From positions 1-58,006 of the forward strand of contig JAGOTT010000006.1 in NCBI GenBank assembly GCA_018061645.1: a stretch of DNA of 58,006 bases, given 5' to 3'. Made by a program: the position numbers and the translations under genes. Within the stretch, counting starts at the first letter, position 1. Each line of letters opens with the position of its first letter. The notes under the pieces are model-generated. The model saw only the letters and a list, made by a program, of their open reading frames with translations, ran no database searches and had not been told where the DNA came from. The DNA comes from Candidatus Moraniibacteriota bacterium. Lineage in GTDB: Bacteria > Patescibacteriota > Minisyncoccia > Moranbacterales > UBA1568. This document shows, in pieces, positions 15,990 through 18,753 of this stretch.

Positions 15990-16556
15990 ATGGAAACAAA
16001 AATAGAGGAAGCGGCTTATCCGGCGATGGACAAGCGGTCGAAGATATTACTCGCGGTTTTTGCGGTCGCGATTTTCTTGTCCATAGGGATTTCTTTCTAC
16101 AAATTCATGGTTGTGCGCGACTATATCATCGAGGCGCAGGTCGACTGCGATCCGGCCGTCGAGGTGTGCTTCGTGTGGGAGTGTGATCCGGAATCGGAAG
16201 AAGAGGGCATGATGTGCACGGGTAATCCGGAAGAGGATGCCTCGTATTACAAAGTCATTCGTAAGAATGCCATGAATATTCCTGTGTGCGATCCGCGTAG
16301 TGAGGAATGTGAGCCGATCGCTTGCATGAACGACGAGCCGGAGTGTGAATATGTCCTGTGCAAGGAGGGGAATGAGGATGGTATAGCGTGCTCGAATCCG
16401 GAGGATTTTGTTGGAGATTCGGAGGAAACGGATATCCCTACGGACGAGAATGCCTTGAGCGAAGAAGCGGTTGGAGCCAAAGAGATAATTGAGGGCGCAT
16501 CGCTTGAAATGATGAACGATGTGGGTGCGGTATCGCCAGGGAGCGACTCCGAGTAG
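15990..16556 (+). CDS. Membrane-anchored Cys- and Asp/Glu-rich protein, unknown function
   Basis: METK start at 15990. One TM (ILLAVFAVAIFLSIGISFY), then an ectodomain with 10 Cys in C-x-acidic contexts (DCDPAVEVCFVWECDPESEEEGMMCTGNPEED...) and an acidic tail. Confidence 0.6.
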   Translation: METKIEEAAYPAMDKRSKILLAVFAVAIFLSIGISFYKFMVVRDYIIEAQVDCDPAVEVCFVWECDPESEEEGMMCTGNPEEDASYYKVIRKNAMNIPVCDPRSEECEPIACMNDEPECEYVLCKEGNEDGIACSNPEDFVGDSEETDIPTDENALSEEAVGAKEIIEGASLEMMNDVGAVSPGSDSE

Positions 16557-16569
16557 ATTTCAGTGTCTT

Positions 16570-17880
16570 ATGAGAATCCTTTTCGTTTCGCAGGAGCTTA
16601 TTGCAGTCGAACTTTGTACGGTTCTCCAATTGGAGGGGCATGATTTGAAATTGTACATCGGAGAGAGGGAACTTCGGGATTGTTATGACGGAATGGCAGA
16701 GAAAATCCTTGATTGGAAGCAGGAGCTTGATTGGGTCGGGAAGGATGGACTTATCATTTTCGATGATGTCGGGTTTGGAACGGAGCAGGACAGACTTCGG
16801 AATGAGGGATATCGGGTTGTTGGAGGGAGCGCACTCGGAGATAAGCTCGAAATCGATCGGAATTATGGGCAGGAGGTTTTCGATGGGTGCGGCATGGAAA
16901 ATATCCTATCGTATAACTTCCCGTCCCCGGAGGACGCGATCGAGTTTGTGAAAGCTCATCCGAAAGTCCGGTGGGTCGTGAAACAGAACGGCGGACACGT
17001 GAGCTCTCTGAACTATGTCGGGACGCTCGAAAATAACGAAGACGTGATCGGGGTGTTGTCCCATTACAACGGGATAGGTATCCGTGGAATCCATCTGCAG
17101 CAGAAGGTATCGGGGATAGAGATGGGGGTCGGTCGATATTTCAACGGGAACGATTGGGTTGGGCCGATTGAAATGAATATCGAGCACAAGAGTCTAATGC
17201 CACATGGTATCGGTCCGAAAACCCCGGAAATGGGTACGCTCATGTGGTACGATAAGGATGAAGAAAACAAGCTGTTTCGAGCTACGCTCGGGAAGATGCG
17301 ATCATATCTCAAGGAAATAGCTTTTCACGGGGATATAGATATCAACTGTATTGTTTCAGGGGATTCTATATGGCCGCTCGAAGCGACTGCTCGGTTCGGG
17401 ACACCATCGACTTCCTGTCATATGGAAATTCATAATTCTCCATGGGGAGAATTTCTTTCTGCGATCGCCGATGGAGTCGTTTACGATCTTGACTATAAAC
17501 CTGGGTACGCCATGGTTGTGACGGTGGCGGTTCCGCCATTCCCGTTCACGGGGCTTCCGCAGGAATTTGCTTCCGAAGGCATGGCGATTCATTTCCGCGA
17601 GAAACCTGTTAAGGATGAGATGAGTCATTATTATTTCGAGGAGGTTCTTTATGGGAAGAAACATATTGACGGGATGATCAGACAGCAGTACTTTGTCGCC
17701 GGTCACAAAGGCTGTGTTGGGTATGTTGGCGGAGCTGGAGCTACGATCGAAGAGGCGAGAACTCAGGCGTACGGGAGAATGGATAATCTCGTTGTGCCGA
17801 AGATGTTTTATCGAGATGATATCGGATTGGAATTTCTTGAAAAGGATGAAAGACAGCTGAAAGAGTGGGGGTGGCTGTAA
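16570..17880 (+). CDS. PurD-like (glycinamide-ribonucleotide-synthetase-like) ATP-grasp ligase, divergent
   Basis: 436 aa starting MRILFVS at 16570. IEHKSLMPHGIGPKTPEMGT resembles PurD DHKR..GD.GPNTGGMG, and LEATARFGTPST resembles LEFN.RFGDPET. The PurD N-terminal GGREHA motif is absent. Confidence 0.6.
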   Translation: MRILFVSQELIAVELCTVLQLEGHDLKLYIGERELRDCYDGMAEKILDWKQELDWVGKDGLIIFDDVGFGTEQDRLRNEGYRVVGGSALGDKLEIDRNYGQEVFDGCGMENILSYNFPSPEDAIEFVKAHPKVRWVVKQNGGHVSSLNYVGTLENNEDVIGVLSHYNGIGIRGIHLQQKVSGIEMGVGRYFNGNDWVGPIEMNIEHKSLMPHGIGPKTPEMGTLMWYDKDEENKLFRATLGKMRSYLKEIAFHGDIDINCIVSGDSIWPLEATARFGTPSTSCHMEIHNSPWGEFLSAIADGVVYDLDYKPGYAMVVTVAVPPFPFTGLPQEFASEGMAIHFREKPVKDEMSHYYFEEVLYGKKHIDGMIRQQYFVAGHKGCVGYVGGAGATIEEARTQAYGRMDNLVVPKMFYRDDIGLEFLEKDERQLKEWGWL

Positions 17881-17916
17881 GCGTAGTTTTTATTAGAGAT
17901 ACAAAGGATTGTTTTT

Positions 17917-18753
17917 ATGGAAGGAACCAAAGAATACTGGTCAATGACGGAAGGGGTTTTTAATTGTCTTATTGATAAGGAGAGAACCCATGCCTTCAAG
18001 GCGGCGATTCAGCACGCGGTAAAAGTCGGTGATGTGGTGGTAGATATGGGGACGGGTAGCGGTGTATTAGCTATGTTCGCGGCTGATTGTGGTGCGAAGA
18101 AAGTATTCGCCGTTGAATCCGACGAAAAAAATTATAAGACATTGGAGCGCACTTTCGAAATAAACGGATACCAAGATGTTATCAGTCTTATCCGCGGTGA
18201 TATCAGAAGCGTCAAACTCCCTGAAAAGGTAGATGTCATAATTGGTGAAATGATTGCTACTGGGCTTATTGAAGAATTGCAGGTTCCGGCGATGAATAAC
18301 ATGCTGAGATTTGCGAAGAATAGCGTCGTGGTGGTGTTGAATCGTTTTAGAAGTTATGTTGATCTTGTATCCAATCCAGACGAATACTACGGGCATCGGT
18401 TTAAGATTTTGCGGTATGAATATCCGGAAATACCTGAAATAAAATCAGTGGTTTACTCCGAGAAGGAGCTTTTCTCGGATGTTGATTTTTCGCAGATAGT
18501 TGAGGATTTGGACGTGAACAAAGAATTGACTCTGACGGTGACAAAAAATGGATCAATTAATGCGATAAGAATTAGCAGTGAGACAATATTCAGCGACAAG
18601 TCCGTTTTTTCCGCTTCTTTCGCTTATAGTTATCCGATAATACTTCCCATTGAAACGCATGCGGTGTCCATCGGGGATAGATTCCGGATCAATATCTCGT
18701 ATAAATTATGTCAGGGGTTTGATGGTTTCGGATATGCGTGTATAAAAATATAA
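17917..18753 (+). CDS. Class I SAM-dependent methyltransferase, protein-arginine-methyltransferase (PRMT)-like
   Basis: 278 aa. LIDKERTHAFKAAI matches the PRMT pre-motif-I M..D..RT..Y..AI. VVDMGTGSGVLAMFAADCGAKKVFAVE is motif I plus post-I, and KVDVIIGEMIATGLIEE is the double-E-loop-like region. Confidence 0.6.
   Translation: MEGTKEYWSMTEGVFNCLIDKERTHAFKAAIQHAVKVGDVVVDMGTGSGVLAMFAADCGAKKVFAVESDEKNYKTLERTFEINGYQDVISLIRGDIRSVKLPEKVDVIIGEMIATGLIEELQVPAMNNMLRFAKNSVVVVLNRFRSYVDLVSNPDEYYGHRFKILRYEYPEIPEIKSVVYSEKELFSDVDFSQIVEDLDVNKELTLTVTKNGSINAIRISSETIFSDKSVFSASFAYSYPIILPIETHAVSIGDRFRINISYKLCQGFDGFGYACIKI

Follow-up and report, generated by a model that had tools for sequence, protein, structure and literature searches.

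The window analysed here, a 58,006-nt stretch of contig JAGOTT010000006.1 from a Candidatus Moraniibacteriota bacterium, carries a co-directional row of genes, all on the forward strand, for an EamA-family permease, a Cys-rich anchored protein, a PurD-like ATP-grasp ligase, a methyltransferase with the fold of protein arginine methyltransferases (PRMTs), a histidine kinase and a response regulator with two receiver domains (REC-REC). That these belong to a conserved module, found mainly in Patescibacteria and consisting of the permease, a ten-Cys protein, the ligase, a kinase with multiple transmembrane (TM) segments and the REC-REC regulator, together with lineage-specific tailoring genes, is well supported; these tailoring genes, among them that of the PRMT-fold enzyme, are interchangeable. 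It is likewise well supported that the ligase is not a glycinamide ribonucleotide (GAR) synthetase, and the module is probably concerned not with purines but with making a modified amine or attaching one. The components fall into known superfamilies, while the module itself is undescribed, widely conserved and mainly a feature of the Candidate Phyla Radiation (CPR): in the literature searched there is no description of the module, of the ligase family or of PurD-like ligases from CPR bacteria, the sole related report being a note on haloarchaeal proteins that is discussed below.

The ligase is not regarded as PurD because the equivalog model TIGR00877, the GARS_N domain and the R[LF]GDPE signature all fail, and because no purine-gene context is found. 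Against TIGR00877 in NCBIfam the protein scores 69.1 bits (cutoff 288), and its Pfam matches to GARS_C (27.8, gathering threshold 34.8) and GARS_A (14.5) are both sub-threshold. The Pfam scan detected no GARS_N domain; the N-terminus of the family reads MRILFVSxELxAAxL, and all 20 aligned homologues begin MR/MN/MK-[IV]-LF. The family profile aligns with PurD structures only from residue 74 onwards, the region of the GGREHA loop being unalignable, which agrees with the original prediction, made from the sequence of the window, that this N-terminal motif is absent. An AlphaFold2 (AF2) model of the ligase (20 homologues) has a pLDDT of 93.2, and its top 15 fold matches in the PDB are all PurD (TM-score 0.69-0.78, identity 16-21%), with biotin carboxylases next. 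Overall, PurDs of organisms ranging from bacteria to human share about 20% identity with the protein.

The PurD residues named in PMC8880213 were mapped, via the Aquifex aeolicus chain 2yw2, onto the alignment of the ligase family. The ATP and phosphate ligands K143, K214, E192 and E100 (PurD numbering) are kept and K103 is replaced by Arg; in the numbering of the ligase, the conserved residues are K138, K207, E184, E94 and R97. The carboxylate-binding R287 of PurD corresponds to an invariant R275 and the glycine ligand D212 to an invariant E205, while E292 is replaced by Ser or Ala, such that two of the three glycine ligands (Asp212, Arg287 and Glu292) are counted as retained if D212 is accepted as Glu. 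One of the Mg ligands, E271, is kept, and the other, N285 of PurD, has become an invariant Thr273. Motifs have changed as well: DHKR..GPNTGGMG of PurD is EHKS..GPKTxEMGT in the ligase and EFNxRxGDPE is EATARFGxPS, and where PROSITE PS00184 has R-[LF]-G-D-P-E the family reads R275-F-G-[T/N/V/C/S/W]-P-[S/A]. The fold and the ATP-binding Lys and Glu residues that mark the ATP-grasp superfamily are thus present with one deviation, the replacement of Asn by Thr at the Mg site. Judged from these residues, the protein appears to be an active ATP-grasp ligase with a rebuilt acceptor site. It shares with PurD the four-domain N-A-B-C architecture, the ATP-binding Lys/Glu, the carboxylate-binding Arg and the C-terminal domain, and presumably also the acyl-phosphate mechanism. 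Its acceptor is not expected to be phosphoribosylamine, because the PurD motifs are changed and purine genes are missing from its surroundings.

A tblastn search with ten Escherichia coli Pur proteins found no PurF, PurL, PurM, PurC, PurK, PurE or PurB in the window or in 132 related loci (1.8 Mb), and over the related loci it returned one PurH-like match and three weak matches to the formyltransferase PurN. The E. coli PurD query itself does not recover the ligase gene of the window at E ≤ 1e-3. At the sensitivity of this search, the earlier statement that the window holds no other purine-biosynthesis gene is upheld, and the doubt it had cast on a GAR-synthetase role is borne out by model, domain, signature and context alike. 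The cultured carrier of the ligase, Minisyncoccus archaeiphilus PMX.108 (locus L044), belongs to a species reported to lack several nucleotide-biosynthesis genes (PMC12281837). The family has 2368 detectable homologues, some of which several sources name phosphoribosylamine-glycine ligase; this label is wrong according to the present analysis and, when the metabolism of CPR bacteria is reconstructed, can make it seem that parts of a purine pathway are present. A parallel exists in the 'extra' PurD-like proteins of haloarchaea, Hlac_1553 and rrnAC0307, which are also annotated as PurD and likewise lack GARS_N and the Asp of R[LF]GDPE. They also miss residues of the Mg site, and defects of this kind led Brown et al. 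(2011, PMC3261824) to exclude them as GAR synthetases; the likeness to the CPR ligase is drawn from this published description, which reports no function or gene context for them.

The ligase family occurs in at least 221 species-level genomes, mostly of Moraniibacteriota, Paceibacterota and other Patescibacteria, and a few of its contigs are labelled Nitrospirota or Rhodospirillales. Many of the contigs bearing the module (L007-L086) were deposited as 'uncultured Bdellovibrionales', 'Gammaproteobacteria' or 'Saccharibacteria' metagenome-assembled genomes (MAGs), labels that look unreliable. For 84 ligase loci, comprising the window, three contig look-ups and 80 genome loci, the surroundings were profiled with hidden Markov models (HMMs) built from the neighbouring genes. 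A multi-TM histidine kinase of the same family accompanies the ligase in 67 of these loci, an EamA/DMT permease in 65, the ten-Cys protein in 61 and the REC-REC regulator in 37; less frequent are an AdoMetDC-like pyruvoyl protein (AdoMetDC, S-adenosylmethionine decarboxylase; 23/84), GNAT proteins and a second family of small membrane proteins (12/84 each), SET-domain proteins (7/84) and the PRMT-fold methyltransferase (5/84). With ligase, permease, Cys-rich protein and kinase together in 61-67 of the 84 loci, the functional unit that had been proposed to extend to the permease and to the two-component system downstream is well founded.

Denoting the Cys-rich, EamA, ligase, kinase and AdoMetDC-like genes C, E, G, H and S respectively, the orders C-E-G-H, C-G-E-H, C-S-E-G-H and S-G-E-C-H are all observed, as are divergent arrangements. 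Minisyncoccus has the overlapping genes for the Cys-rich protein, decarboxylase, ligase and kinase in that order. Despite such shuffling, the genes of the module stay within a few kb of one another, often with overlapping stop and start codons. This argues for a functional link rather than frozen synteny, because the proximity is maintained through many orders and orientations. Units of ligase and permease that have no Cys-rich gene are found at L033, L048, L049 and L072. The retention of the module across many CPR lineages with small genomes, together with its link to a two-component system, suggests that it has a probably important function in the envelope, in transport or in signalling. A role as an anti-phage defence system was also considered and was rejected, since PADLOC gives only generic methyltransferase, HATPase and REC matches.

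The clues to the chemistry come largely from the accessory genes of related loci. The AdoMetDC-like gene typically lies directly upstream of the ligase, and all 24 of 24 such proteins match TIGR03330 and conserve the catalytic Ser, His and Cys. CPR homologues of AdoMetDC proved to decarboxylate ornithine (Li et al. 2023, PMC10407285). At L033, L104 and L127 the AdoMetDC-like gene is replaced by PvlArgDC, a non-homologous pyruvoyl arginine decarboxylase, and genes resembling deoxyhypusine synthase, of the homospermidine synthase type, are present at L064, L115-L118 and L128. The smallest arrangement is that of L033 (9349-13237 of OZ244972.1), in which PvlArgDC, ligase and EamA genes are consecutive and a lone receiver gene comes next. 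The island has a GC content of 0.40-0.48, against 0.52-0.62 in its flanks, and lies in the 6.0-Mb chromosome of a Rhodospirillales MAG; it looks like a minimal form of the module, gained horizontally by a non-CPR genome. The cultured carrier and this minimal PvlArgDC-ligase-EamA island make the function of the module experimentally approachable. No decarboxylase gene was found in the window. Systems of pyruvoyl decarboxylase and transporter, and the neofunctionalised AdoMetDC homologues SpeDA and SpeDC (PMC10407285), are similar in that an AdoMetDC-like or PvlArgDC gene sits beside a permease gene; their clusters differ in containing spermidine or homospermidine synthases and in having no ATP-grasp ligase, Cys-rich protein or kinase.

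A further clue is a gene for an LPG_synthase_C/DUF2156 protein, flanked by the decarboxylase and Cys-rich genes, at L092, L098, L100, L104, L106 and L111, all of them methyltransferase loci without the ligase. This domain, which in MprF transfers aminoacyl groups from tRNA, is found in none of the 84 ligase loci and never occurs together with the ligase. The two are thus alternatives, unrelated enzymes that both aminoacylate an acceptor. Such exchange has a precedent in the side chains of peptidoglycan, to which additions are made either by the ATP-grasp enzyme Aslfm or by the tRNA-dependent Fem enzymes. The comparison with Aslfm and Fem, and with the LPG_synthase_C domain of MprF, holds for the non-orthologous alternation between an ATP-grasp and a tRNA-dependent enzyme; the known systems differ from the module in acting on peptidoglycan precursors or phosphatidylglycerol and in having no decarboxylase, EamA, PRMT, SET or GNAT partners. 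Potential modifiers of nitrogen recur around the ligase: at L066 (1489-3393) it is fused to a C-terminal GNAT domain in a protein of 634 aa, separate GNAT genes lie 3' of the ligase at L004, L062 and others, and SET genes are present in several methyltransferase loci in addition to the seven ligase loci that have them. Another variant is that of L062 (8538-12404), on a contig labelled Nitrospirota: it has two genes of the AdoMetDC type (one Pfam-canonical), a SET gene, the ligase, a GNAT gene and a gene for a small membrane protein, the opposite strand carries a kinase and two receivers, and another AdoMetDC-like gene, the third, lies further on.

The eukaryote-type PRMT signature that had been recognised in the methyltransferase is matched by the fold of the whole protein, for which a PRMT assignment is well supported by modelling. 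In a phmmer search of the PDB the best match is PRMT3 (1.9e-17), with PRMT6, PRMT7, PRMT8, CARM1 and PRMT1 weaker, and the 50 closest folds to the AF2 model (pLDDT 92.9) are all PRMT1, 3, 6, 7 or 8 (TMq 0.73-0.78), the match spanning both the Rossmann domain that binds S-adenosylmethionine (SAM) and the C-terminal beta-barrel. The double-E loop GEMIATGLIEE (VDVIIGEMIATGLIEE) aligns with that of PRMT3, and E111, E119, E120, motif I and an N-terminal D..RT motif are invariant among 30 homologues. No T-H-W is found in the family in the place of the THW loop; a conserved C-terminal SFAYSYPIILP takes its position, an equivalence judged by eye. With 278 aa, where a PRMT core has roughly 310-320, the methyltransferase lacks about 35 residues, and from this length it probably has no dimerisation arm. 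Compared with the type I enzymes PRMT1, 3, 6 and 8, it shares the Rossmann fold and beta-barrel, motif I, the YF..D..RT motif of the N-terminal helix and the double-E Glu residues that hold the guanidinium group, and differs in the missing THW, in its length and in its position in a bacterial operon beside a histidine kinase. Several database labels name it PrmA, the ribosomal protein L11 methyltransferase; this was rejected, as TIGR00406 gives 39.5 bits against a cutoff of 183 and only the Rossmann core (32-121) matches. Nothing relevant was found in a literature search on bacterial PRMTs. As a compact bacterial family that has the PRMT fold of eukaryotes, with its double-E loop, and whose operon context is defined, these proteins should help to trace where arginine methyltransferases came from and which substrates they can use.

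The pairing of ligase and methyltransferase proposed for the window proved to be real but not part of the core of the module. Five further, separate loci (L035, L054, L060/L102, L087 and L097) have the set of Cys-rich, ligase, methyltransferase and kinase genes as well, yet the methyltransferase accompanies the ligase so rarely, as counted above, that it must be an optional partner, and at L002, the closest relative with flanking sequence (79% identical), the ligase is followed directly by the kinase. The gene also has the lowest GC content in the operon, at 0.416 (0.444 at third codon positions, GC3), where the window has 0.557 and the neighbouring genes 0.49-0.57. Because of this composition, its rarity in ligase loci and its absence from L002, it looks like a recently acquired cassette between ligase and kinase. 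Three relatives had suggested that it is an unrelated insertion, an idea overturned by a scan of metagenomes centred on the methyltransferase, which gave 34 distinct loci, 28 of them with enough downstream sequence. In 18 of these 28 the module kinase starts within 1.5 kb downstream, abutting the methyltransferase in 13, and in the other 10 no kinase is found downstream. The ligase is present in 11 of the 34, mostly directly upstream, and absent from about half of the loci with long flanks, and Cys-rich, EamA and decarboxylase genes recur across the set. The methyltransferase is facultative yet almost exclusive to the module.

For the Cys-rich protein the composition noted at the outset is confirmed: read from the ATG at 15990, its 188 aa include exactly 10 Cys and 45 residues of Asp or Glu. 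The true start is more likely the ATG at 16026 (MDKRSK...), since most homologues in the full HMMER search align there from their own residue 1. Among 53 homologues the family is characterised by a basic N-terminus, one TM segment, a domain of about 95 aa in which a YYK motif and 10 invariant or near-invariant Cys are found, and an acidic tail that varies and is missing in several members, for example those of L025, L044 and L047. Nothing significant was found for the protein in Pfam or NCBIfam. The full HMMER search places the family in 501 representative clusters, all of short stand-alone proteins, and neither this nor a word-index search gave any informative fusion. The basic N-terminus (MDKKSK) and single TM segment predict that the Cys-rich domain faces outward. 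Enzymatic modification of this ectodomain is topologically unlikely, and the suggestion that it might be the substrate of the two enzymes is not sustained; the protein is a poor candidate because its domain faces outward, the enzymes are cytoplasmic and the acidic tail is not conserved.

The upstream transporter was correctly placed in the drug/metabolite transporter (DMT) superfamily: the permease of the window, which has no Pfam match by itself, scores 253 bits against its family profile, and 49 of 50 members of that family match EamA (PF00892). The family has the two repeats and approximately ten TM segments of EamA/DMT proteins, and its gene frequently overlaps that of the ligase in related loci. 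A protein cluster that joined DnaJ to EamA proved to be an artefact of a run of N in L045 and was set aside. Two further families of small multi-TM proteins, for which there is no Pfam family, occur mainly in loci without EamA, as if replacing the permease; examples are L020:8842-9924, L062:11865-12404, L103:4083-4637 and relatives. No Pfam or NCBIfam family matches the multi-TM region at the N-terminus of the kinase (18763-19740), which is conserved among the kinases of the module (350-850 bits between loci). The REC-REC regulator has no DNA-binding or other output domain, and its output is not obviously transcriptional control.

The mechanism favoured here, which is put forward tentatively and with slightly less than even confidence, is that the ligase aminoacylates an amine derived from arginine or ornithine, and that nitrogen tailoring and membrane transport follow. 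The ligase would activate a carboxylate, most likely that of an amino acid, as an acyl phosphate and join it to an amine other than phosphoribosylamine, probably one of the agmatine or putrescine type. Where a pyruvoyl decarboxylase is co-encoded it would supply this amine; in the organism of the window, it would have to come from elsewhere in the genome or from uptake or a host, because the window has no decarboxylase gene. The PRMT-fold enzyme may then N-methylate either the substrate or the product, on a guanidino or an amino group, a step that GNAT or SET proteins could take over in other lineages. The EamA permease would carry the compound or a precursor through the membrane, and the kinase and regulator would sense or regulate the process, the Cys-rich ectodomain possibly acting as a co-sensor. 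This path is preferred because of the decarboxylases, the deoxyhypusine-synthase-like genes, the alternation with LPG_synthase_C, the potential N-modifiers of the GNAT, SET and PRMT families, and two chemical precedents. One is the bacterial enzyme SznE/StzE, which methylates the guanidino group of free L-arginine and is likened to the methyltransferase for its reaction; the other is the N-methylagmatine unit known from the natural product saskemycin. The original prediction of a 'modification or small-molecule pathway' can accordingly be narrowed, in that the accessory genes of relatives point to the tailoring of an amine derived from an amino acid rather than to the modification of a protein.

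Several points weigh against this mechanism. Both the acid and the acceptor are deduced from gene neighbourhoods alone, and approximately 70% of ligase loci, the window included, have no decarboxylase nearby, which means either that the amine comes from elsewhere or that the acceptor is a different one. The AdoMetDC-like enzyme could be a true AdoMet decarboxylase, an ornithine decarboxylase or an arginine decarboxylase. The PRMT, SET, GNAT and ATP-grasp families are classic modifiers of proteins too, and the relatives of LPG_synthase_C normally act on lipids, which favours a role in the envelope. The places given to the Cys-rich protein and the kinase are conjectural, part of the synteny within one phylum reflects shared ancestry, and the invariant change from Asn to Thr at a Mg ligand casts some doubt on canonical ATP-grasp chemistry. 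A bolder extension of the same scheme, which is considered rather improbable, is that the module makes a new class of cationic metabolites, aminoacylated and optionally N-methylated or N-acetylated amines of the agmatine or putrescine type, built by a neofunctionalised PurD, exported by EamA and read by the kinase with the ten-Cys protein as co-receptor. Such a compound might serve as a self-produced signal or as an effector of surface charge in episymbiosis, the PRMT-fold enzyme being a small-molecule guanidino methyltransferase, and the system would be found in Patescibacteria and, by horizontal transfer, in a few others.

Ranked second among the explanations is modification of the cell envelope, which is less likely than amine aminoacylation while still credible: the ligase, or LPG_synthase_C in its place, would add an amino acid or cationic amine to a lipid or to a precursor of peptidoglycan or a teichoic-type polymer, a membrane protein would present or flip the substrate, and the kinase and acidic protein would monitor surface charge. 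By analogy, this would resemble MprF and Dlt under the control of GraRS, or the formation of cross-bridges by Aslfm as against Fem. It is consistent with the substitution of the ligase by an aminoacyl-phosphatidylglycerol synthase domain, with a kinase sensor composed only of TM segments and co-encoded with an outward acidic protein, and with the genes for S66 LD-carboxypeptidases in seven distinct loci and for M23 peptidase and MreB nearby. However, neither a lipid flippase (a TM domain of the MprF type) nor any Mur, Fem or Dlt component can be recognised in the module, the known function of EamA proteins is solute transport and not lipid flipping, and the Rhodospirillales island has nothing beyond decarboxylase, ligase, permease and receiver genes. 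The decarboxylase, deoxyhypusine-synthase-like, SET, GNAT and PRMT-fold partners are also more easily read as tailoring a small molecule. The methyltransferase might alternatively be a signalling accessory comparable to CheR, methylating arginines of the kinase or REC-REC regulator independently of the ligase. The kinase is indeed its commonest neighbour, well ahead of the ligase in the metagenomic scan, and the PRMT fold and double-E loop would suit such a substrate; but almost all variants of the module have the kinase as their last enzyme-adjacent gene, so that any preceding gene will abut it, ten methyltransferase loci with room have no kinase downstream, and the methyltransferase also adjoins decarboxylase, LPG_synthase_C and SET genes. 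An independent signalling role is considered quite unlikely.

Modification of the Cys- and acid-rich protein before export, whether by additions like those of RimK and tubulin tyrosine ligase (TTL) or by cross-linking as in graspetides, must be judged very unlikely. For it, one may note that only a very short gap commonly separates this gene from a ligase gene immediately downstream, that proteins are the usual targets of PRMT and SET enzymes, and that graspetide clusters such as that of microviridin contain sets of ATP-grasp, GNAT and methyltransferase genes. Yet the domain is predicted to face outward, whereas the enzymes carry no signal for secretion, the acidic tail differs among members and is missing from several, units of ligase and permease exist without the gene, and in both sequence and fold the neighbours of the ligase are PurD and then biotin carboxylase rather than enzymes of the RimK or MdnC type; the supposed graspetide precursor would, moreover, be a signal-anchored protein with a ten-Cys domain. 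Least credible of all is that the ATP-grasp protein is a divergent but genuine GAR synthetase, or salvages a purine intermediate, with unrelated neighbours retained by ancestry. The name given to it in some sources, the PurD fold and the two retained glycine ligands are all that this has in its favour; the failure of model, domain and signature, the low identity to PurDs and the lack of seven Pur proteins from the neighbourhoods stand against it, as does the fact that a carrier is reported to be without several nucleotide-biosynthesis genes. The linkage of the module also persists through extensive shuffling of gene order, and in one case the ligase sits on a low-GC island in a 6-Mb alphaproteobacterium, a genome expected to have its own PurD.

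The features of the locus are listed in Table 1. The three genes of interest are as tightly spaced as had been stated, with 13 nt between the Cys-rich and ligase genes and 36 nt between the ligase and methyltransferase genes, all open reading frames (ORFs) being on the forward strand; the part of that description to be revised is the start of the first gene. A further 9 nt separate the methyltransferase from the kinase. The motifs quoted for the ligase and methyltransferase are all present in the translations, and the consensus promoter proposed at 14791 is the top-scoring site of the region and lies after the hairpin. As a class, promoter-like matches are not enriched in the region (9, against 6.8 ± 2.8 in shuffles).

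Table 1. Features of the module and its borders in the window.
Feature	Position	Strand	Remarks
Terminator-like hairpin and T-run	14713..14740	+	3' of YgaP-like gene; upstream boundary of the unit
Predicted sigma-70-like promoter	14791..14819	+	TTGACT-17-TATAAT with extended -10 TG; 11/12 consensus matches
EamA/DMT-family 10-TM permease	14885..15874	+	329 aa from in-frame ATG 14885; GAAGGAG ribosome-binding site upstream
Cys-rich single-TM anchored protein	16026..16556	+	ORF 15945-16556; alternative starts 15990, 15945
PurD-derived ATP-grasp carboxylate-amine ligase	16570..17880	+	436 aa
PRMT-fold SAM-dependent N-methyltransferase	17917..18753	+	278 aa; Rossmann domain and beta-barrel
Histidine kinase	18763..20448	+	Multi-TM N-terminal region of ~300 aa, then HisKA and HATPase_c
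REC-REC response regulator	20493..21311	+	Two receiver domains, without output domain
Aspartyl-tRNA synthetase (AspRS)	21323-22720		465 aa; downstream of regulator, MreB next

A riboswitch search with Rfam gathering thresholds, covering the window and 15 module loci, returned only tRNAs. Upstream of the hairpin, the YgaP-like gene (14453-14686) encodes a TM protein of 77 aa, has a very high GC3 of 0.83 and is kept in only five related loci. On the other side, AspRS follows the module in approximately 26-29 loci, and two types can be distinguished by score. The AspRS of the window matches the bacterial models of about 590 aa in two stretches, suggesting that an insertion domain is missing. The largest ORF of the window, of 2075 aa, lies well beyond the module at 41708-47935.

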